64,000 nt of DNA from Candidatus Saccharimonadia bacterium (lineage in GTDB: Bacteria; Patescibacteriota; Saccharimonadia; UBA4664; SCTI01), in assembly GCA_046597065.1 (NCBI GenBank), contig JBKJLI010000002.1:52071-116070 (forward strand), given 5' to 3'. Under the pieces are notes generated by a model that worked only from the letters and a program-made list of their open reading frames with translations, ran no database searches and was not told the origin of the DNA. The position numbers were made by a program, and so were the translations under genes. Below are positions 3,791 to 52,018 of this stretch, in pieces; position 1 is the first letter of the stretch; the number at the start of each line of letters is the position of its first letter.

Positions 3791-3865
3791 TGGTGATCCC
3801 AGGGGGATTCGAACCCCCGTTGCCAGGATGAAAACCTGGTGTCCTAACCCCTAGACGATGGGACC
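3791..3865 (-). tRNA. tRNA-Glu (anticodon UUC)
   Basis: Reverse complement GGTCCCATCGTCTAGGGGTTAGGACACCAGGTTTTCATCCTGG...GGTTCGAATCCCCCTGGGATCACCA shows a cloverleaf with anticodon loop TTTTCAT. Confidence 0.9.
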
Positions 3866-6649: not shown

Positions 6650-7429
6650 ATGAAGCACTTCACTATAGTGGGCAACTGGAAGATGCACCAAGCGCCGGAT
6701 CAGGCGGCCAAGTTGGTCCAGAATCTACAAAAAAAGATCAAACCAAGCACCCATGTAACCACGGTGGTGTGTCCGCCGTATATCGACATCCCTGCGGTGT
6801 TCGATAAGGTGGAGCCTGACACACTCAAAATTGGCGCTCAAAATATTCACGAGCAAGATGAGGGTAATTATACTGGTGAGATTTCGGGGCCAATGCTTAA
6901 AGGCCTGGCCGATTATGTGATAGTCGGTCATTCCGAACGTAGACGTGATGAGGCCGAAACCGATCTTAAGATTGCCGCAAAGCTAGCGGCGGCTGTACGT
7001 AATAATTTGACTCCAGTTCTGTGCGTAGGCGAGCGCTTAAATGATCGAGAAGACGGACATTCAAGTCGGGTAGTGGCAGATCAGCTTAGGGTTTGCTTAA
7101 GTGAGCTAACCGCCACCGAGGCTCGCAAAATCATCATCACATATGAGCCGGTATGGGCAATTAGCGATGGCGATGGTAAGGGCCATTTTGCGACGCCGGA
7201 TAAAGTTAAGCCAATGTTGAAAGTAATCCGAGAAACGGTCGAAGAGCTATTTAGCGAGGCTACAAGTTCGGAAATTGAGTTGCTTTACGGCGGAAGCGCA
7301 AATCCTGACAATGCGGCGGCTTTTTTAAAAATGGAGCACATTAACGGCTTACTGGTTGGCGGGGCTAGCTTGAACTATGAGAGCTTTGCCAAAATTGTGA
7401 ACATCGCTGAAAAATTGACTAAAGAGTAA
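6650..7429 (+). CDS. tpiA: Triosephosphate isomerase
   Basis: 259 aa; GNWKMH, AYEPVWAIS-like and LYGGS motifs. Confidence 0.95.
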   Translation: MKHFTIVGNWKMHQAPDQAAKLVQNLQKKIKPSTHVTTVVCPPYIDIPAVFDKVEPDTLKIGAQNIHEQDEGNYTGEISGPMLKGLADYVIVGHSERRRDEAETDLKIAAKLAAAVRNNLTPVLCVGERLNDREDGHSSRVVADQLRVCLSELTATEARKIIITYEPVWAISDGDGKGHFATPDKVKPMLKVIRETVEELFSEATSSEIELLYGGSANPDNAAAFLKMEHINGLLVGGASLNYESFAKIVNIAEKLTKE

Positions 7430-7441
7430 CCCTGAATTAGC

Positions 7442-7475
7442 GAGACCCCGCAGGACATGGGGCCTCGCGGGGTCT
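7442..7475. terminator. GC-rich imperfect palindrome between convergent tpiA and the minus-strand cassette (bidirectional terminator candidate)
   Basis: GAGACCCCGCAGG-ACATGG-GGCCTCGCGGGGTCT. A similar hairpin sits at 8771-8801. Confidence 0.45.
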
Positions 7476-7504
7476 ATTCAATGGGTTTAACCCATCTAAT
7501 CACC

Positions 7505-8710
7505 TCACTTTCGTTTTCTCAGGCGATCTTCAAGGTCGCTAATTGTGAGTCGTTGTTGCTCACTCCTGGTTTGGAGTGCGCTTAGACGCGCATCCTGGAT
7601 CCCAGAGTCTGCCTGGTGTCGAGCGCAGGCCGCATCTAGTTCGCCAACTCGCTTCTTAACGCGTCGCAGCTCATCGACTTTGAGCCTCAACTGACCCCTG
7701 AGCTCTTCAACCGTCTCTTCGGAACCGCCGCGAATGGCCCCGAGTTTTACTTCCAACCTGTCGACCTCGCCTTGAAGTCGATTCTTGGTTCGAGTATGTG
7801 CCTGCCGTTCTGTTTCGAGTGATGTTGCGAGCTCTGTAAGCCGCAACTTTTGGCTGGCAGCTTCGGCGCTATCTCCAACTGTTGCGCTAGCTTTAGCTTG
7901 TCTTAGCTCGCGTTCAAGGTCCAAAATACGACGTTCCAGAAGGGCGTTTTGCTCTTGGATCTCTCGATGATCATCAAAGCTCACCACCCGCCGGCTCTTG
8001 AGACCGACGATCTCACGGTCCTTCTCATCGAGCAGAGCCGTTAAGCGAGTGACTTCATCGTTTTGGTCTTTGGGGGTAGGTACTTCTTCGAGCTCATCAA
8101 GTAGCTCACGGATCTCGGCCAGTTTTGCTTCACAACTATATACAAGGCCTTCTAGATGTTCGTCGACTTCACGTTTAGTGAGTTCGATTCGCCCAAGCTC
8201 ACTTTTGATGGCGGCAAGAAGCTCAACATCGGGTGCCGACTTCAGTACTTCTAGCTGGGCTTCAAGCTCAAGCTGTTGAATCAGAATTTCCTTCAGCGTT
8301 TGCTTGGCCGCTTCGACTTCTGTTGCTAGTTTGAGAATCGATGCCTCAATGGCCGCGACTGAACGTGGTGAGTTAATTGTTGCCGCGGTTATATCGCTGC
8401 GGTCGGCCACGAGTACGGGTATTGTGGCGGATCCTTGCGCATGAAGGAATTGTAGACCAGAGTCTGTGAGCTTGATCCAATATGTGCGCTTGCCGATGAC
8501 TTTGCGCTCGAAGTGACCGTGTTTATGGTTGTGAACTAACAGTTGCCTTAAAGCAGAAGAAGGTGTGCCCATTAGTTCTGCCAGCTTTCGCGTGACACCC
8601 CCACTAGGATCGCTAAACTGATAGTTTGGCTGGCTATAAAGCACAGCCAGCATCTTTAGATACTGCGGGCTGCTGCGCATTACAACCTCCTGGGTTGAAA
8701 GTAGGTACAT
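7505..8710 (-). CDS. Hypothetical protein with an N-terminal winged-HTH-like domain and a ~300 aa coiled coil (KfrA-like architecture); high GC. The real start is probably the internal Met (MRSSPQY..., about 8678-8680), which has an AGGAGG SD
   Basis: ORF-track protein. N-terminal ~95 aa is globular (YWIKLTDSG); the rest is heptad-rich in E/L/R/K/Q. AGGAGGttgtaATG precedes the internal Met. Local GC is clearly above the flanks. Confidence 0.6.
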   Translation of the reverse strand: MYLLSTQEVVMRSSPQYLKMLAVLYSQPNYQFSDPSGGVTRKLAELMGTPSSALRQLLVHNHKHGHFERKVIGKRTYWIKLTDSGLQFLHAQGSATIPVLVADRSDITAATINSPRSVAAIEASILKLATEVEAAKQTLKEILIQQLELEAQLEVLKSAPDVELLAAIKSELGRIELTKREVDEHLEGLVYSCEAKLAEIRELLDELEEVPTPKDQNDEVTRLTALLDEKDREIVGLKSRRVVSFDDHREIQEQNALLERRILDLERELRQAKASATVGDSAEAASQKLRLTELATSLETERQAHTRTKNRLQGEVDRLEVKLGAIRGGSEETVEELRGQLRLKVDELRRVKKRVGELDAACARHQADSGIQDARLSALQTRSEQQRLTISDLEDRLRKRK

Positions 8711-8770
8711 CTTTACAAAGAATTAACTCATTGTTATGCCAGAAGCCAAATCTGTCAATCAGGTATATAG

Positions 8771-8801
8771 CATAAGACCCCACATGGCGCGGGGCCTTAT
8801 G
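8771..8801. terminator. GC-rich hairpin between the two genes of the high-GC cassette (attenuator or terminator candidate)
   Basis: CATAAGACCCC-acatggcgc-GGGGCCTTATG. Related in sequence to the hairpin at 7442-7475. Confidence 0.4.
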
Positions 8802-8804
8802 GGG

Positions 8805-9533
8805 TCAGTTGGTGAGGTTCAGCAAGGTGCGGATCGGCTGAATCTCGGGGAAGTTGCGCTGTTCGAAGTCGCAAGGGTTGGTAATGATCTTGCCGAACTG
8901 GCGAACGAAGCGGGTTATGTCGTGTGCTCCGAGGAGCTGCGACGGTCCCAGCGGCTCAAAGAACTTCCAGCGGGTAGGGTTAGGCAGCCCAGCACGGCGC
9001 AGCAGCTGGTTGAGCTGCTTGTGGCTCCCTTCGCTAATCGAGTGGTAGAGCTCTTCGGCCAATTTGTCGAGGAGCACCTGCATTCTCTGCTCGTAATCAC
9101 TGGGCCCGCGGCGCATTCTCTGCACCGCGTCGTCGTGATCCTGCCAGCGGAACTCATCGCGCCAGGTGGGGATCATGGCTGCAGACCGGCGGCCAGCATC
9201 GGTTGCCGGCAGCTTTGCCTTCAGCTGCCCAACCTTACGCTGTGGCGACGCCTCCTTAGAGTGGTGCAGCGACCAGCGGTCGATGGGGTTGGAGTTGATG
9301 CTGCTGATGTTGCCTCGGATGTACCTACGATCACGAGGCACTTCGAGCAAGCTAGAGTTGTCGTAGAACGTCTCGCTATCCTTCAGCACCTTACGCAGCT
9401 GGTTCTTGATGCGCTTGCGATGAGAGCGATTGCAGCTCTTCTTGGCCTCGGGATAGAAGCGGGTCTTCGTCTTGGTGTTGCACGCCAAGTGACGTACCTT
9501 ATCCTCGCCGTAGAGCAAGGTAACTCCTTTCAT
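8805..9533 (-). CDS. Hypothetical basic protein (242 aa), first gene of the high-GC minus-strand cassette
   Basis: Protein-like composition, against an Ala/Leu/Arg-rich antisense ORF on +. Preceded by a 3-codon uORF with a strong SD (GGAGGTGActtcATGAGTTCATAAactcATG). Confidence 0.55.
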   Translation of the reverse strand: MKGVTLLYGEDKVRHLACNTKTKTRFYPEAKKSCNRSHRKRIKNQLRKVLKDSETFYDNSSLLEVPRDRRYIRGNISSINSNPIDRWSLHHSKEASPQRKVGQLKAKLPATDAGRRSAAMIPTWRDEFRWQDHDDAVQRMRRGPSDYEQRMQVLLDKLAEELYHSISEGSHKQLNQLLRRAGLPNPTRWKFFEPLGPSQLLGAHDITRFVRQFGKIITNPCDFEQRNFPEIQPIRTLLNLTN

Positions 9534-9561
9534 GAGTTTATGAACTCATGAAGTCACCTCC
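9531..9561 (-). promoter_or_regulatory. Perfect 8-bp inverted repeat CATGAGTT-TATG-AACTCATG covering both the uORF ATG and the main ATG of the 8805-9533 gene, plus the GGAGGTGA SD
   Basis: Read directly from the sequence; operator or translation-control hairpin candidate. Confidence 0.35.
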
Positions 9562-9686
9562 AGATGTAGGGTACGAATACAATACCAAGTTATTAAACAG
9601 ATAAATACTCGTTTTGTCAATAATTGAATTAATAAATTTTGTCATATGTTCTGGATGTTTGTGACATCTGATCTTGGTACAATGGG

Positions 9687-11873
9687 GTGATGAGTATGTT
9701 GTTAAAAGATTTAAATGATCCGCAACGCCAAGCGGTGCTTCAAACCGAGGGGCCGGTGTTAATGTTGGCAGGAGCCGGTAGTGGTAAAACCAAGGCGCTA
9801 ACGCATCGGATTGCCCACTTGGTGGCCGATAAAGGTGTTTCGCCGGGACAAATACTGGCGGTAACCTTTACCAATAAAGCCGCTGGCGAGATGCGTGCGC
9901 GGGTGCTAACTCTACTAGGCAAACGGGTTGATAACCGTCATTTTTTGCCTTATATTGGCACCTTTCATTCAATATGCGTACGGATGTTGAGGCAAGATGG
10001 CGACCGGATTGGATTGAGTAAAAGTTTCAGTATTTTTGATGCTCAGGATTCACTATCGGCCACCAAGCAAGCCATGCGCCAAATTGGAATAGATGAAAAG
10101 CAGTTTTCGCCAAACTTAATATCTAACTTGATATCATCGGCCAAGAATGAACTGCTGGGCCCAGAAAGCTACGCAAAGCATGCCCATGGAGCCGCCCAAG
10201 AAGTGACAGCCAAGGTTTACCCACTGTATGAGCGTTTACTGACAGAAGCCGGCGCACTGGATTTTGATGATCTAATAATGAAAACGGTAAAAATGTTGAG
10301 CCAACCCGAACTGCTTCAAAAGTGGCAGCACCAGTTTGCTTACGTAATGATAGATGAGTATCAAGACACTAATCATGCCCAGTATCGGCTGGTAAAGCAG
10401 TTAGCCTTAAGTCATCGCAACATCTGTGTGGTTGGCGACGACTGGCAGGCTATTTATTCTTGGCGCGGTGCCAACTTTCAGAACATTCTGGATTTTGAAA
10501 AGGATTATCCCGATGCGGTGATTATCAAATTAGAGCAGAACTATCGATCGACCCAAAACATATTGGCGGCAGCCGATGCAGTGATCACTAAGAATCTGGT
10601 GCGCTCTAAAAAAGAGCTGTGGACCGATCAAGCCGACGGCGCCAAGGTGCAAGTAGTGACGGTTTATGATCAAAACCATGAGGCCGATACCATCTGTGAG
10701 TTAATTGATCGGCATGTAAGGGCAGGCGAATATAAGCTATGCGATTATGCAGTTTTATACCGAGTGGGCGCTCAGTCGCGGTCGCTAGAAGAGTCGCTAT
10801 TGCGACATAATCTGCCCTATAAGATTATTGGTGGTACGCGCTTTTATGAGCGCAAAGAGGTTAAAGACGCCCTGGCCTATCTGCGCTTTATCCATAACCC
10901 TGGTGATATCGTTAGTTTTAACCGCATTATTAATCTGCCGCCACGGGGCTTGGGCGACAAAAGCTTAGAGCGATTGGGGCAGTATCAACGCGGCCACAAT
11001 CTTAGCCTGTTAGATGCACTGCTGACTTCTAGCCAAGTCGAGAGCTTAACTCCTCGAGCACGGGAGGCTTTAATGCGTTTTTATGATCTGATTATGGGAT
11101 TACGAGGTGAAATCGAAAATCTTTCGATTGGCCAGTTGCTAGATCGGGCGCTTAAGCAAAGTGGATATATTGACTACTTAAACGACGGAAGTATTCCGGC
11201 GGCCGAGCGGTTAGAAAACATTGCCGAGTTGCTGCGAGTCTCTGAAACCTACAGCGAGCTAGGGCTAGAGGGCTTTTTAGAAGAGATTGCTCTGGTGTCA
11301 GACATCGACAACTACTCTACAGATGCTGATGCCGTTACATTGATGACGCTACATGCTGCCAAGGGGTTAGAGTTTGAGGTGGTGTTTATGCCCGGAATGG
11401 AGGAAGGGATCTTTCCTCATGGTCGTAGCGCATTTGATCAGTCCCAGCTCGAGGAAGAGCGGCGGTTGTGTTATGTGGGTATGACAAGGGCAAAACAGCG
11501 TTTGGTAATGCTTCATACCCAATCGCGCCTGCTTTATGGAGGGGTTCAGCATAATCCACCTTCGCGATTTTTGCTCGATATACCGGCGCAGCTACGTGAG
11601 GGCGATACGCTTACGGCTGGATCTACGGTTACAGCTCCTAGCCCAGAGCGGTTTGTGGGGGGTAACCCGTTTAATGATCTAGAGTTTGAAGGTTTAAGTG
11701 ACGGCTTGGCTCCAGAGAAAGCTAATCTAAAGCCAGGCGATCAAGTTAGCCATGCCAAGTTTGGAGAAGGCCTGGTGGTGTCGGTGGTTGGCGATGAACT
11801 TACGGCGACATTTGTGGGGGTTGGTACTAAAAAACTTAGTCTGTCGTTTGCACCGATTCAAAAGTTAAAATAA
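9687..11873 (+). CDS. uvrD: ATP-dependent DNA helicase UvrD/PcrA
   Basis: 728 aa; Walker A AGAGSGKT; helicase motifs (DEYQDTN, GDDWQAIY, VTLMTLHAAKGLEF). Promoter-like TTGTGACA...TGGTACAAT 8 nt before the start. Confidence 0.9.
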   Translation: MMSMLLKDLNDPQRQAVLQTEGPVLMLAGAGSGKTKALTHRIAHLVADKGVSPGQILAVTFTNKAAGEMRARVLTLLGKRVDNRHFLPYIGTFHSICVRMLRQDGDRIGLSKSFSIFDAQDSLSATKQAMRQIGIDEKQFSPNLISNLISSAKNELLGPESYAKHAHGAAQEVTAKVYPLYERLLTEAGALDFDDLIMKTVKMLSQPELLQKWQHQFAYVMIDEYQDTNHAQYRLVKQLALSHRNICVVGDDWQAIYSWRGANFQNILDFEKDYPDAVIIKLEQNYRSTQNILAAADAVITKNLVRSKKELWTDQADGAKVQVVTVYDQNHEADTICELIDRHVRAGEYKLCDYAVLYRVGAQSRSLEESLLRHNLPYKIIGGTRFYERKEVKDALAYLRFIHNPGDIVSFNRIINLPPRGLGDKSLERLGQYQRGHNLSLLDALLTSSQVESLTPRAREALMRFYDLIMGLRGEIENLSIGQLLDRALKQSGYIDYLNDGSIPAAERLENIAELLRVSETYSELGLEGFLEEIALVSDIDNYSTDADAVTLMTLHAAKGLEFEVVFMPGMEEGIFPHGRSAFDQSQLEEERRLCYVGMTRAKQRLVMLHTQSRLLYGGVQHNPPSRFLLDIPAQLREGDTLTAGSTVTAPSPERFVGGNPFNDLEFEGLSDGLAPEKANLKPGDQVSHAKFGEGLVVSVVGDELTATFVGVGTKKLSLSFAPIQKLK

Positions 11874-11897
11874 CGCCATTTATACCGCTTATGCTCC

Positions 11898-11926
11898 TTG
11901 ACATATATACCTGTAACGCTTACTAT
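11898..11926 (+). promoter_or_regulatory. Sigma70-like promoter TTGACA-17-TACTAT upstream of the RpfB-like gene; CTTATGCT motif abuts the -35
   Basis: Read directly from the sequence. Confidence 0.45.
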
Positions 11927-12166
11927 GTTTAATAGGATTTTCCAGATGTGGAGTCCCTAAAATACAAAGCCAAAATCGGTCGCTACTGACTAACTCGTGA
12001 GGCTTACATTTTAAGCAATCTCAGCACAGCGCTTCAAGCGCCTGCCGGCAGCAGTTTCCGTAAAATCCTGTCAGCTGTAGTAGGCGTTGCGTTTAGCATC
12101 ACTATTTTAGGACTTATAACGGGTTTAATCCCGCCACCAAAGTCGGCCCTGGCCGACTCATCGGCC

Positions 12167-22185: not shown

Positions 22186-22275
22186 CTGGCGGTGGAAGTG
22201 GGATTCGAACCCACGAGAGACCTAGATCTCTGATCACTTCGCGGGTGATTCCGATAAACCACTCCGGCATTCCAC
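22186..22275 (-). tRNA. Type-II tRNA (long variable arm, G73; Ser-like) with an anomalous anticodon loop CCGCGAA: C33 and apparent anticodon GCG. Either a variant or a pseudo-tRNA
   Basis: Reverse complement GGTGGAATGCCGGAGTGGTTTATCGGAATCACCCGCGAAGTGATCAGAGATCTAGGTCTCTCGTGGGTTCGAATCCCACTTCCACCGCCA. Acceptor, D, T and 18-nt variable arms all fold. The loop is non-canonical. Confidence 0.65.
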
Positions 22276-22351
22276 CGGATGAGCCAGCCAGACCCACAAC
22301 GAGTATTTCAAATCAAGATTAAATCCCGGTTAAACTGATACAATAATTCTG

Positions 22352-41096: not shown

Positions 41097-41190
41097 TCTA
41101 ATACTTGCTAAGCGTAAGCGCTTTGTGGTATTACAGAGTTGCAAGACGGCTACATGCCGACCCCGTGTACATCGAAAGAAAGGTGTCACC

Positions 41191-41907
41191 ATGCCCGAAT
41201 ATCGCCGTTTGGTGGTTGTTGCGGGCACCGGTGTGCCTCCTATAGCTGCCCCACTGCTTTACAGGCAGTTTGCCCGGCTGTCGCCAGTTTCAAAGGTGTT
41301 TGCTTTGCCCCGGCTGGGGCTTGGCCATAGTCATGATGCCGCGCTTGATCTGGCTCCGCGAATCCATGAGTATCTGGCGGGTGAAGGCGACGTACTGGGT
41401 GATTCCCAGGGTGGCTACCCGGCTATCAACTATGCCTACAACCACCCCGATGAGGTCCGCCATCTAGTGTTGCTGTCGGTACCGCTAGATGGAACCGGTG
41501 CGGCTCGAATCATTGATACCGCCGGTACGCGCTGTATGCGCCCTGGTAGCCGCTATATCGACAAGATTCGTGGTATGGCTAAGGAGCTGGCCGAGTATCA
41601 GGGCGGCCCCAGGATCATCTGTATCTCCAGTGGCCATGACTACCTGGTGCCCTGGGAATCGGCGTTTTTGCACGCGCACGCCGATAACCCGAGAGTTGTA
41701 AACATTTGCGTGGGGCATTCCGGTACAAAGCCGCCTCATCCGTCGGTTCGGGTCGTGCCAGTTAGGTACGGCGCCGTTCACATGCACCTCTCGGAAGTTT
41801 TTCTACGCGGCACCAGCGGCGTGGTGGCGGTTGAGCTCGGTTATGCCGCCCCAGTGGCCGACGCAAGCTTCGATCTGACCGCCAAGCCAGAACTGGTGCC
41901 GGCGTAA
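41191..41907 (+). CDS. Alpha/beta-hydrolase (GDSQGG nucleophile motif), high GC; start taken at the SD-preceded ATG
   Basis: GxSxG motif GDSQGG; later Asp and His. GC is clearly above the flanks. A terminator hairpin follows at 41913-41965. Confidence 0.7.
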   Translation: MPEYRRLVVVAGTGVPPIAAPLLYRQFARLSPVSKVFALPRLGLGHSHDAALDLAPRIHEYLAGEGDVLGDSQGGYPAINYAYNHPDEVRHLVLLSVPLDGTGAARIIDTAGTRCMRPGSRYIDKIRGMAKELAEYQGGPRIICISSGHDYLVPWESAFLHAHADNPRVVNICVGHSGTKPPHPSVRVVPVRYGAVHMHLSEVFLRGTSGVVAVELGYAAPVADASFDLTAKPELVPA

Positions 41908-46763: not shown

Positions 46764-47531
46764 ATGAATAAAATATCTGACGCCCAAATCAAGCCGCTTA
46801 GAATTTGGAATCTGATAGCCGGTTCGTTACATTTAGCATCTTTAATTGCAGTAGTAGCTTTATCTAACAGCTTTTCTCTCCCGGTAACCGCGACATATAT
46901 GACCGGCCCTCCCGGTTCGACGTTTTCTAATCCAATACTTCTGTTTAACAATAATGTTAGCTTTACAATTGCCTTGTTCTTGGGGCTGTCGGCTTTTTTC
47001 CACTTCTTAGTTGCGTCTAAGCAATTTTTTCCAAGATATGCCGTCAGCTTAAAGCAAAATCGTAATATGTTCCGCTGGGTGGAATACTCATTAAGTTCTT
47101 CGGTAATGATTTTATTAATCTCACAATTAAATGGCATTAGTGACTATGCCGCACTTTTGGCAATCTTTGGCGTAAATGTATCGATGATATTATTCGGCTG
47201 GCTGCAAGAAAAATATGCAAATCCGGGCGATGGCCAATGGCTTCCGTTTATATTCGGATGTATTGCCGGTATTGTTCCATGGTTAATAATCGTTGTTCAA
47301 ATGATTTCTCCGGGTGGCCCGGCTGATGCACAGTATCCAAACTTTGTTTACGCCATTGTATTTTCACTGTTCGTTCTGTTTAACTGCTTTGCCTTGGTTC
47401 AGTACAAGCAGTATCAGGCAAGGGGAAAATGGGCCAACTATTTACGGGGCGAAAAAACCTACATTGTTTTAAGCTTAGTTGCTAAATCATTGCTTGCTTG
47501 GCAAATATTTGCCGCCACTCTAGCAAGTTAA
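46764..47531 (+). CDS. Heliorhodopsin (7-TM retinal protein; Lys in TM7, Glu in TM3)
   Basis: Seven hydrophobic segments. Blocks resemble my recollection of archaeal HeR: LSNSFSLP, LSAFFHF, FRWVEYSLSSSVMI, ILFGWL, IAGIVPWLII, VQYKQY..GKWANYL.GEKTYIVLSLVAKSLLAWQIF. Leaderless: TGATACAAT 7 nt before the ATG. Confidence 0.8.
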   Translation: MNKISDAQIKPLRIWNLIAGSLHLASLIAVVALSNSFSLPVTATYMTGPPGSTFSNPILLFNNNVSFTIALFLGLSAFFHFLVASKQFFPRYAVSLKQNRNMFRWVEYSLSSSVMILLISQLNGISDYAALLAIFGVNVSMILFGWLQEKYANPGDGQWLPFIFGCIAGIVPWLIIVVQMISPGGPADAQYPNFVYAIVFSLFVLFNCFALVQYKQYQARGKWANYLRGEKTYIVLSLVAKSLLAWQIFAATLAS

Positions 47532-47617: not shown

Positions 47618-48199
47618 CTAATTGATGGTGTATGAACCATCAAAGTGCCCAATCAAGCTAACTCCCATGTTGTGCGCATCCACGCGGACGCATCCGAATG
47701 GTGTTGGAAAACAGCGCTTGAAGTCAACCTGGACCGAGGATCGGTGGCCGCCTTGCGGATATCCCTTGTAGTAGTAATAACCGTTGCTTTGGCTACCCAT
47801 CCCTTCGTCGTTCCATTGAAGAAGTGCACCGATTGTGGTGACTCCGTACTGGATCTTTGGAGCGGGTGTTTGGGTCACCCTATGTGACTTGCGGCTGTAG
47901 CACCACGTCTTGGTGAGCCTCACCCAGAACATGGTACCGGCCAGGGCGTGAAACTTGCGATACGCCCAGTGGGTGGCACATGCCTCGCGCTTATTGCGAG
48001 AGGCTGCCTGTGCTTGCCCGACGGTAGTGCTGATGTACAACAGCTGTCCTTTCTTGATCCAGGCAGCAGACGGGTGCTTGGGCGTCGCACCTTGTGAAGT
48101 GGAATCACTTCCGCTCCCAAGCACGAACCCGATCACGTAGACGACCGTCATGATCACCAAGATCCAGATCAGGATCTTCTTCCAGTTCCAGTCTTTCAT
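47618..48199 (-). CDS. Hypothetical secreted or membrane-anchored protein (193 aa), high GC
   Basis: Strong SD AGGAGGAGG; N-terminal TM/signal; no family recognised. Confidence 0.6.
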   Translation of the reverse strand: MKDWNWKKILIWILVIMTVVYVIGFVLGSGSDSTSQGATPKHPSAAWIKKGQLLYISTTVGQAQAASRNKREACATHWAYRKFHALAGTMFWVRLTKTWCYSRKSHRVTQTPAPKIQYGVTTIGALLQWNDEGMGSQSNGYYYYKGYPQGGHRSSVQVDFKRCFPTPFGCVRVDAHNMGVSLIGHFDGSYTIN

Positions 48200-48448: not shown

Positions 48449-49081
48449 TTATGCGAGCTGGAGTTCTTGCTCGCGCTCTCGATCGTACGGCTCGATGGCT
48501 TCGGGGCCTTCTGGCCCATCATCTTCGGGCTCTGGGTCGTCCTGATCATCTAGGCCTGGACCGCCCCCGCCGCCGCCTCTCAAGTAGAAGGGCACGGTGA
48601 AAAAGAATATCGCGCCAGTAATGAAGATGGCAGCGATTACAGGGTAGAAAGCGTTTCCCCACCATGTGTTATATGGACTCTGGTAGACCTCGTCGTCCTG
48701 CTTGGTAGCCGCAGCCTTTTCGTAAAAGAGATCATCGCCTGTGGCTTGGTTTGAGACCCATGCATGTAGACCCATGCCGGCAGAAACTTCTGGCTCCACT
48801 GGCTGGTCGTAATAGTCCCAGACCTTCCCGGTTCGTGTGGTGACCTCGATGGTGGCCAACCGGTAATGCTCATCTTTAGTCAGCGAGATATTGATCTTTT
48901 TTAGCGCAGATACGTTTAGCACCCGCGCTGTGATCTGCTTGCCGTACCGGTGGTGCTGAACTTGGTTACTATGCGTAACCCAAACGACGAGCAGCACCAA
49001 AGAAACAACGAAGGTTGCTCCTAGTAGCTTCCAGCGAACTGGCGACATGCGCATTCGGAACACCTCCAATTTGATTTTCAA
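48449..49081 (-). CDS. Hypothetical membrane protein (two TM, acidic Gly/Pro/Asp/Glu-rich C-terminus), high GC
   Basis: TM segments LLGATFVVSLVLLVVWV and FYPVIAAIFITGAIFFFTV; a terminator-like hairpin sits at about 48405-48430. Confidence 0.55.
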   Translation of the reverse strand: MKIKLEVFRMRMSPVRWKLLGATFVVSLVLLVVWVTHSNQVQHHRYGKQITARVLNVSALKKINISLTKDEHYRLATIEVTTRTGKVWDYYDQPVEPEVSAGMGLHAWVSNQATGDDLFYEKAAATKQDDEVYQSPYNTWWGNAFYPVIAAIFITGAIFFFTVPFYLRGGGGGGPGLDDQDDPEPEDDGPEGPEAIEPYDREREQELQLA

Positions 49082-51139: not shown

Positions 51140-52018
51140 ATGTCCGGCATTGTGAAGTGGGCAAAAGCAGTACTGGGCATCCGCAACAAAGCGGAGGGTC
51201 CAAAGCAGTTAAAGGAGCGGAGCCGAGACATGCGCCCGGCCGAGTTCTTCGACCAGTTCCATGAACGCGCCCGAAATAAGGGTGTAAATCCGACCTATCG
51301 GATTGTCTGGACCTTGTTGTGGCCGGTTGTGGTGTTGTTTTATCGCACCGAGCACTGGTGGGTTGAGCGGGTACCTACCAAGGGTCCGCTGATCTTTTCG
51401 TGCAACCATCACTCAAACATGGATCACTTCTTGATCGCTTTGCGCGCGCCGCGACCGGTTCGCTTTCTGGCCAAATCAGAGCTGTTCTCTGGCATTGTCG
51501 GCTGGATCATTTCGCATGGCGGAGTGTTCCCAGTTCGGCGAGGCTGGAAGGATAGAGAGTGGCTGGTTACTGGTCTTGCGGTTCTGGCTAGGGGCGAAGA
51601 CATTCTGATGTACCACCCCGGCGGTCGTGCCCGGCCGGGTGACGGCGATAAGGCCAAGCCTGGAGTTGGCGAGCTAGCGCTCGTTAGTGGCACTCCAGTG
51701 GTGGCGGTTTACATCCACAACTCTGAGCATGTTCGTGAAGGAGGTTTGCCTCCTCGAATCACGGTCTGTTTTGACAAGCCGGTCAACTACGGCCTGGTTG
51801 ATAATCCGTCTGATGCAGCCAAGCAGTTGGTTGCCGACGACGTCAAGGCTCGTGTTGATGCCCTGCAGGCTGATTTCTTGCTGCGCTGGGTGCGTGGTGA
51901 GCGTCCGGCCTGGAAACAAGGGGCAGTACGTGTCGCGATCTACTACGCGCTGACTTACTTTGGTTTGCGCAAGCTGCAGGGCATGATCGACTGGGCCGCG
52001 AAGCCTCGTGGTCTTTAA
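51140..52018 (+). CDS. 1-acyl-sn-glycerol-3-phosphate acyltransferase family (PlsC-like), high GC
   Basis: NHHSNMDHF (HX4D) acyltransferase motif; SD GAGGAAG. GC estimated above 60% in sampled stretches. Confidence 0.75.
   Translation: MSGIVKWAKAVLGIRNKAEGPKQLKERSRDMRPAEFFDQFHERARNKGVNPTYRIVWTLLWPVVVLFYRTEHWWVERVPTKGPLIFSCNHHSNMDHFLIALRAPRPVRFLAKSELFSGIVGWIISHGGVFPVRRGWKDREWLVTGLAVLARGEDILMYHPGGRARPGDGDKAKPGVGELALVSGTPVVAVYIHNSEHVREGGLPPRITVCFDKPVNYGLVDNPSDAAKQLVADDVKARVDALQADFLLRWVRGERPAWKQGAVRVAIYYALTYFGLRKLQGMIDWAAKPRGL

Follow-up and report, generated by a model that had tools for sequence, protein, structure and literature searches.

Between the core genes tpiA (6650–7429, plus strand) and uvrD/pcrA (9687–11873, plus strand) of a Candidatus Saccharimonadia bacterium lie two co-directional minus-strand genes, here called gene A and gene B. 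The window that we analysed is the whole stretch of 64,000 nucleotides (nt) around them (contig JBKJLI010000002.1, positions 52,071 to 116,070), and coordinates without another label refer to it. A preliminary description of this DNA had pointed out the two genes; both are real, and an independent Logan assembly of the same organism called them identically. The annotated flanking open reading frames (ORFs), pyk, pgk, tpiA, uvrD and an rpfB-like gene, are core genes. For pyk-pgk-tpiA and uvrD-rpfB-like the best relatives were metagenome-assembled genomes (MAGs) of Candidatus Saccharimonadales/Saccharimonadia, at 53–74% protein identity, which identifies the window as chromosomal DNA of Saccharimonadia (TM7, Patescibacteria). 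The two genes of the pair are as follows.

8805–9518, minus strand: gene A, with a TTG start, 237 amino acids (aa) and a TGA stop at 8807–8805
7505–8680, minus strand: gene B, with an ATG start, 391 aa and a Shine-Dalgarno sequence (SD), GGAGG, at 8690–8686

Gene A was previously listed as a 242-aa ORF running from ATG 9533 to 8805. We place its start at TTG 9518 instead, because this fits the N-termini of its homologues (MLYG.., MIYG..) and has AAAGGAG 5 nt upstream. For gene B, the ATG at 8680 follows GGAGG by 5 nt and agrees with the 391-aa record of the protein collection (NCBI and Logan).

Related loci L003, L005, L006, L007, L008 and L028 keep the gene order pyk-pgk-tpiA-[interval]-uvrD-rpfB, in which the content of the interval between tpiA and uvrD varies. 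The coordinates of this interval are given here for each locus.

L003: 10775–12103
L005: 941–5082
L006: 10760–14535
L007: 1283–4267
L008: 10748–11552
L028: 9851–11575

Most informative was L028, a 325-kb JGI contig, where the interval holds a gene A homologue (P0007) and then a 261-aa winged-helix/acidic-linker/coiled-coil gene. Order and orientation of this pair are those of the window, and the flanking proteins are 61–74% identical to the window's. A further gene A homologue, P0004 in L024, is divergent from a uvrD fragment 68% identical to that of the window. The L003 interval has two winged-helix/coiled-coil genes and no gene A. The pair is absent from L005–L008: the intervals of L005–L007 carry murC/murB and membrane proteins (in some a Zn-ribbon membrane protein), and that of L008 carries only about 0.8 kb of small ORFs. 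The two L003 genes are tandem overlapping ORFs (10801–11415 and 11229–12053, both minus strand) that may have arisen by duplication of the counterpart to gene B; at its N-terminus the first is extended by a long Arg/Gly/Pro-rich stretch, which is perhaps untranslated.

Protein divergence of the pair was extreme relative to that of its surroundings. Among Saccharimonadia, gene A proteins share 24–41% identity, against 61–77% for UvrD, Pgk, Pyk and TpiA. Gene B has diverged so far that BLAST no longer finds it. The pair evolves far faster than the core. The winged-helix/coiled-coil proteins of L003 (the first of the two) and L028 gave a collinear BLASTP match to each other (E = 0.002), and a profile of the L003 and L028 proteins, compared by hhalign, matched the head of gene B in the corresponding place (P = 7e-4, probability 26%). 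Carriers of gene A formed no clean clade in UvrD and Pgk trees, which were star-like and poorly resolved. We found no paralogue of either gene in the window or in the loci of the relatives.

The gene A product is a protein of ∼28 kDa with an isoelectric point of 10.1 (both computed on the 242-aa ATG-start ORF) and 11% Arg. It had been described at the outset as a basic protein of no recognised family, and so it remains, library searches having come back empty. A word-indexed search of 5.8 billion proteins retrieved only gene A itself. A full HMMER scan of 1.84 billion representatives yielded eight remote homologues (E 2.8e-22 to 3.8e-4) and one repeat artefact. Family-alignment pattern scans of IMG/VR and of a metagenome collection gave no confirmed relatives. 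The family is rare and undescribed. Its conserved motifs are an N-terminal LYGxxKxRHxAR, RW, RLxxxAxLP, EF and a C-terminal LxGxHD. The 'GxHD' motif might suggest an HD-phosphohydrolase, which we considered and rejected, since the His upstream of it varies and its spacing is wrong for such an enzyme.

The family falls into two groups. Group 1, of Saccharimonadia type, comprises the window protein, P0003, P0004 and P0007 (mutual identity 24–41%). Group 2 comprises P0006, P0008 and P0011 (38–43%), and its members occur in contigs of 71–76% GC, one of them labelled Myxococcaceae. In a Myxococcaceae MAG (L038, 3965–6103) the homologue lies 90 bp downstream of a gene for an AlkZ-like DNA glycosylase. 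Together with uvrD in Saccharimonadia this gives DNA-repair-adjacent contexts in both lineages, which may be coincidence. Another group 2 member is found in L032, a phage-like contig with many small same-strand ORFs and PHROG matches to phrog_850 (1.5e-43) and phrog_4652 (2.4e-54). There the homologue is followed by a 62-aa helix-turn-helix (HTH) ORF and then by small coiled-coil ORFs; the HTH ORF, directly downstream, resembles a HicB-like antitoxin HTH (phrog_8245, E = 3.9e-5). The same contig encodes a Ro60/TROVE-like RNA-binding protein at 10169–11746. The closest homologue of gene A, P0003 (L034, 72–503; 40% identity), has only 143 aa and ends early. It may be a truncated or decaying copy, with leader and a window-like terminator hairpin (see below) both kept.

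Gene B encodes a winged-helix head (residues ∼1–95, nt 8396–8680) and a heptad coiled-coil tail (residues ∼110–391). The coil, of ∼280 aa, had a period-3.5 power of 0.51, against 0.20±0.05 in shuffled sequences (z about 6); the globular controls TpiA and Pgk stayed within about 2 standard deviations. The tail also gave weak matches to helix-rich and SMC-like coiled-coil models. The head alone matched the archaeal riboflavin kinase winged helix weakly in two libraries. A profile was then built from the gene B head aligned with the heads of its three positional counterparts in relatives, and this four-head profile matched MarR/SlyA structures: 3nrv (E = 3.3e-4), SlyA 1lj9 (3.6e-4), the winged helix 3cta (4.9e-4) and about 40 further MarR chains, over the recognition-helix and wing region. 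These matches and the heptad power bear out the winged helix and long coiled coil first proposed for gene B. For the full protein no curated family scored above threshold. The word-indexed search of 5.8 billion proteins retrieved only gene B itself, and with the head alone it retrieved nothing. Pfam MarR models did not match gene B, whose head runs directly into the coiled coil.

A KfrA-like identity had also been proposed for gene B, and this found no support. The KfrA_N domain (PF11740) was not matched at E<=1 by the full protein or at E<=5 by the head. In BLASTP against R751 KfrA (NC_001735), gene B reached E = 0.55, with the alignment confined to the coil; the hhalign probability for the head profile and KfrA was 0.1%, and a profile of the gene A family against KfrC found nothing.

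Upstream of gene A lies a compact leader, which is common to four lineages (the window, L034, L024 and L028). Its order is a first SD (SD1), 5–6 nt, an ATG mini-ORF within a hairpin, a second SD (SD2) and the TTG or GTG start. In the window its parts are these.

9554–9561, minus strand: SD1, GGAGGTGA, serving the mini-ORF; GGAGGTG is invariant in all four lineages
9538–9549, minus strand: upstream mini-ORF (uORF) ATG AGT TCA TAA (MSS*), 5–6 nt after SD1
9529–9552, minus strand: leader hairpin TTCATGAGTT / CATA / AACTCATGAA, enclosing the uORF and abutting SD2
9524–9530, minus strand: SD2, AAAGGAG, 5 nt upstream of the gene A TTG

The palindrome earlier noticed at the gene A start is thus this hairpin (9552–9529), a part of the leader. 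At SD2, GAAAGGAG is invariant in the four lineages, with a spacer of 5–7 nt to the TTG/GTG. The uORFs have three to six codons and encode MSS, MRLS, MSVLTL and MSLV; their peptide sequence is not conserved, and their stops lie 17–21 nt before the gene A start. The window hairpin has a folding energy of −11.3 kcal/mol (z = −9.2 against shuffles). Hairpins with other stem sequences occupy the leaders of L034, L024 and L028 (z −4 to −6.9), and RNAalifold on the leader found one pair with both sides changed. In the minimum-energy fold of the window, SD1 also pairs with the gene A spacer and start codon. An Rfam scan of 7300–9800 gave no match, and a DNA scan of the metagenome collection with the leader motif gave only two chance matches. 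We infer that the leader serves translational coupling of gene A and keeps its synthesis low. Peptide stalling of the erm/cat type is disfavoured, because the leader peptides are not conserved.

Just past the gene B stop (7476–7506, minus strand) there is a small arrangement of GAGGTGA, TTAG and ATG GGT TAA in a palindrome (ATGGGTT A AACCCAT). It recalls the gene A leader, including an apparently compensated stem change; the likeness was not significant against shuffles. For the same reason we rejected the idea that direct repeats flank the cassette, with this leader-like motif as one partner.

Promoter-like sites and GC-rich stem-loops punctuate the pair further.

9592–9620, minus strand: candidate gene A promoter, TTGACA, 17 nt, TTTAAT, read by eye and weak
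8776–8806, minus strand: GC-rich stem-loop, overlapping the gene A stop codon, terminator-like
8730–8758, minus strand: gene B promoter-like site, TTGACA, 17 nt, AACAAT, from a consensus scan (10/12 matches)
7443–7475: GC-rich stem-loop where gene B and tpiA converge, between their ends

The candidate gene A promoter sits in the AT-rich divergent intergenic region that it has in common with uvrD, and was missed by the consensus scan because its −10 element has no A at position 2. Neither stem-loop qualified in a consensus terminator scan; that at 8776–8806 was left unflagged because it has no T-run. A GC-rich stem-loop lies 3′ of gene A in all four lineages, and the one after the L034 homologue is near-identical to that of the window. 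The two window stem-loops, each just 3′ of a gene, both have a GACCCC/GGGGTC stem and an internal GGGGCCT, and 8776–8806 is still the best match in the window to 7443–7475. They had been called related GC-rich hairpins. Both are present, and their relatedness is not significant in an unbiased test: the alignment score was 24, against a shuffle maximum of 22.7±1.7. We therefore do not treat them as copies of one element, an earlier pattern test to that effect having been circular.

Base composition separates the two genes. The window as a whole has 48.8% GC (0.488). Gene A, at 0.584, ranks among the highest 0.3% of windows of 729 bp, with up to 0.62 in 300-bp windows over it. Its GC content at third codon positions (GC3) is 0.75, the maximum among 51 proxy genes of the window (typical value ∼0.49, runner-up 0.68). 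For gene B the GC content is 0.517, a value equalled or exceeded by 16% of windows of its size, and GC3 is 0.49, the host average. The slight excess in gene B sits at codon position 1 (0.67) and comes from an amino acid composition rich in E, A, L and R. The preliminary description had spoken of a high-GC two-gene cassette, which is right for gene A and wrong for gene B. Gene A alone deviates, so the pair is not one compositional unit, and the whole-unit deviation of a recent island is not seen. GC of at least 0.56 is also reached in three other parts of the window.

The GC3 excess of gene A recurs in relatives. The L028 homologue has GC3 0.83 against a locus median of 0.57, and the L024 homologue 0.83 against 0.725 for its neighbours; in the phage-like contig L032 the homologue is no GC3 outlier. 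Since the L028 and L024 homologues are GC3-rich despite 24–30% protein identity, we do not take the excess as the trace of a recent transfer. At such protein divergence synonymous sites are expected to be saturated, so the excess must be maintained or re-imported repeatedly from a GC-richer pool. This is a caution for genome scans: a local GC3 anomaly combined with orphan status mimicked fresh horizontal transfer, and the same anomaly is still there in lineages with only about 25% protein identity left.

High GC3 is not specific to gene A; several window genes with no Pfam match reach 0.61–0.68. Elevated values in this range were noted at 47618–48199 (minus), 48449–49081 (minus), 41125–41907 (plus) and 51140–52018 (plus), two of these four genes being without a credible Pfam family. 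Accessory and orphan genes of the window genome tend toward higher GC3 than core genes. In L028 an orphan of 250 aa with GC3 0.876 and no Pfam match (6701–7453, minus) lies between uvrD and the rpfB-like gene, where the window has a gap of only 293 bp; by a hidden Markov model search it is not a paralogue of gene A. At the other extreme, the lowest GC (0.406) among the 51 tabulated proxy genes belongs to a heliorhodopsin gene (46764–47531, plus; Pfam PF18761, E = 9.4e-92). Elsewhere in the window, ARAGORN called a tRNA-Arg (GCG) of 90 nt (22187–22276, minus), overlong for a class I tRNA; an intron, an insertion or a miscall could account for the length.

We read the pair as an old and fast-evolving chromosomal module at the uvrD-tpiA junction of several Saccharimonadia, with the role of a domesticated conflict module as our best guess, and assign this reading a probability of roughly one half. 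Gene B would dimerise through its coiled coil and bind DNA with two heads. It would serve as a scaffold on DNA and probably also regulate the locus. Gene A would be a nucleic-acid-binding partner or an effector, made at a low level. Ribosomes would load at SD1, translate the mini-ORF and melt the hairpin, and would then re-initiate 17–21 nt downstream at the weak TTG/GTG of gene A. The weakest step is the role itself. A domesticated, probably phage-derived, genetic-conflict module (for exclusion, addiction or a defence-like purpose) is our best guess over housekeeping, because the pair is extremely divergent and patchily distributed in a variable interval, a phage-borne relative sits near small HTH regulators, and the gating is tight.

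Several observations weigh against this reading. Gene A is carried by only three or four Saccharimonadia lineages, and L007, the closest UvrD relative of L028, lacks it; vertical descent with losses and transfer between Saccharimonadia are thus indistinguishable. Statistical support for homology between gene B and its L028 and L003 counterparts is weak, with an hhalign probability of 26%. Translational coupling by the leader is a reading of its sequence. Gene A and its family gave nothing above noise against Pfam, NCBIfam, PHROGs, PADLOC and PDB sequences and profiles. In PADLOC, gene A and five homologues had no match, and gene B and its counterparts produced only coiled-coil noise, so the suggestion of a defence-like pair in the preliminary description drew no match for either gene. 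A single-sequence AlphaFold2 model of gene A was unusable (predicted local distance difference test, pLDDT, 42), and one from a seven-sequence alignment was all-helical at low confidence (pLDDT 54); Foldseek of the gene A models against BFVD and PDB found no match (TM<0.2). No known toxin or antitoxin domain was found in gene A or gene B by Pfam, NCBIfam or PADLOC, and antitoxins do not typically have a coiled coil of 280 residues. That the pair has long stayed at one site may just as well point to a cellular role outside conflict.

The pair could instead have been re-imported repeatedly rather than inherited vertically, the interval being a recombination hotspot: gene A/B alleles would move among Saccharimonadia, or come in from their phages, as the conserved flanks recombine homologously. 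The interval indeed shows at least four different gene contents in seven lineages. The window, L028 and L024 form no clean UvrD clade and L007 is without the pair, gene A GC3 exceeds that of its neighbours in three lineages, as if drawn from a GC-richer pool, and one family member is in a phage-like contig. The single-gene trees behind the clade argument are star-like and poorly resolved, however. Leader and orientation relative to uvrD are the same in all carriers, for which descent is the simplest account, and the alleles are all far apart (41% identity at most) and give no sign of recent exchange. We regard such hotspot exchange as unlikely, although it deserves to be kept in mind.

A cellular role is a rather doubtful alternative. 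The pair would then be a KfrA/RacA-like accessory for DNA organisation or segregation, a housekeeping factor in nucleoid organisation or division of reduced genomes, with gene B filaments or dimers tethering chromosomal DNA and gene A as a helical partner like KfrC. The architecture of head and coiled coil fits the description of KfrA-type proteins (PMC7821693), gene A is predicted to be all-helical, and the pair has long been retained at a chromosomal site by core genes. The sequences tell otherwise: gene A and gene B have no relation to R751 KfrA/KfrC, and gene B has no KfrA_N. No par genes adjoin the pair. Its absence from most sampled relatives (L005–L008) is a poor fit to an essential role, and its divergence is far above that of housekeeping genes.

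More speculative, and improbable on present evidence, is a stronger version of the conflict idea, by which the pair is an undescribed system of episymbiotic Saccharimonadia for exclusion of phage and foreign DNA or for addiction. It would unite a DNA sensor made of winged helix and coiled coil with a new family of basic helical effectors that Myxococcaceae and a phage also carry. Release of the effector would depend on a uORF-hairpin leader responsive to the state of translation, and the lasting high GC3 of gene A would reflect continual turnover of alleles from a GC-richer mobile pool.

Lateral import was the favoured account of the preliminary description, which saw a plasmid or integrative and conjugative element (ICE) module acquired from a high-GC donor. 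Such a donor could be, for instance, the actinobacterial host of the epibiont. We consider a recent import of this kind very unlikely. In its favour are the GC3 of gene A at the top of 51 window genes, the orphan status of both proteins in the word-indexed search, the differing content of the tpiA-uvrD interval between relatives, and gene A relatives in Myxococcaceae-type contigs of 71–76% GC. Synteny contradicts it, and the host-like GC3 of gene B and empty searches of plasmids and phages speak against it. The locus is largely conserved in relatives: L028 has the pair at this very site and L024 has gene A beside uvrD, both at only 24–30% identity, and winged-helix/coiled-coil genes are in L003. 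In tblastn, gene A and gene B had no match among 72,556 plasmids and 50,697 phage records, and P0006 and P0008 had none in the phage and plasmid collections. The gene pair has no adjoining tRNA (the nearest is at 3791–3865), flanking repeat candidates were not significant, and the annotated flanks are core genes; no signs of mobility were seen among these features, a dedicated search for integrases or transposases not being part of the analysis. KfrA_N, the plasmid-type domain, was not detected in gene B. With no plasmid, phage-collection, defence or mobility signal, and with a same-site pair elsewhere, recent plasmid or ICE import is not supported. The gene A family may still have come from a foreign source or a phage in the distant past, given its members in Myxococcaceae MAGs and in a phage-like contig.

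Long ORFs do run on both strands over gene A, as had been remarked (8736–9551 plus, 8805–9533 minus), and the plus-strand frame was examined as the possible true gene.

8736–9551, plus strand: shadow ORF of 271 aa, codon-aligned antisense to gene A; no gene

GC at codon positions 1/2/3 is 0.56/0.42/0.75 on the minus strand and 0.75/0.42/0.56 on the plus strand, which is implausible (plus-strand position 1, 0.746). The plus-strand translation is poor in K and rich in L, V, A and R. The closest homologue was matched by tblastn at 6e-29 in the sense frame and 5e-4 in antisense, and the antisense frame is broken in homologues (two stops in L024, four in L032). Its openness in the window fits chance given the GC3 (P = 0.07). 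On these sequence grounds the 271-aa ORF is a shadow of gene A. On the stops in homologues and the chance openness we also rejected selection for an open antisense gene as a cause of the GC3 excess. That gene A is not real, the segment being either the plus-strand gene or non-coding GC-rich DNA, is already effectively refuted: both strands are open and the exact 242-aa sequence is recorded only from the Logan assembly and absent from NCBI, but eight homologues with conserved motifs fit the minus-strand protein, the tblastn scores, codon-position GC and broken antisense frame all favour it, and no Rfam family matches.

Candidate phyla like the Saccharimonadia have many unannotated genes, and it is rarely clear which of these are real, old or functional. 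The gene A/B pair is real, and is kept at one chromosomal site over deep divergence with a conserved translational gate. Through gene A it is tied to a very small family, whose other members come from Myxococcaceae and a phage-like contig, and this gives structural and genetic work a defined target, for instance in cultivable TM7-host pairs. If the module is conflict-related, a new effector family would be added; if not, it would be just another DNA-binding pair restricted to a lineage, of modest interest in general.

Among known systems, cat/erm-type leaders act through translational coupling or attenuation by a uORF and hairpin. The gene A leader resembles them in its SD-bearing short uORF and in a hairpin that overlaps the uORF and abuts the downstream ribosome-binding site. 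It differs in that its peptides, of three to six codons, are not conserved, its SD2 is itself mostly unpaired, and no Rfam family covers it.

The arrangement of the genes invites comparison with reverse-order type II toxin-antitoxin systems (HicA/HicB-like). Genes A and B are co-directional, the second encodes an HTH protein and the first is translationally gated; in L032 the gene A homologue likewise precedes a small HicB-like HTH ORF (phrog_8245). Unlike such systems, gene A and gene B do not overlap and have a stem-loop and a promoter-like site between them. Gene B, with 391 aa and a long coiled coil, is also unlike known antitoxins, and no toxin or antitoxin was matched.

KfrA-type proteins of IncP-1 (R751/RK2) and IncU (RA3) plasmids have a globular N-terminal HTH head and a long alpha-helical coiled-coil tail (PMC7821693). 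Gene B has a head and a coiled-coil tail too, and its neighbour, gene A, is predicted to encode another alpha-helical protein. In the R751 layout a kfrA-kfrB-kfrC operon stands beside partition and central-control genes. Our pair does not share that layout: it is chromosomal, between tpiA and uvrD, rather than in a plasmid central-control/par region, and its partner gene comes first in the gene order. The gene B head is moreover MarR/SlyA-like, without KfrA_N or a plasmid match.

Also comparable are the MarR/SlyA winged-helix regulators. Many of their solved structures align with the gene B head and its three counterparts over the recognition helix, the wing and the '...LTxxG' region. MarR dimerises through the N- and C-terminal helices of a domain of ∼150 aa, whereas in gene B the head has ∼95 aa and continues into a coiled coil of ∼280 aa, presumably the dimerisation part.

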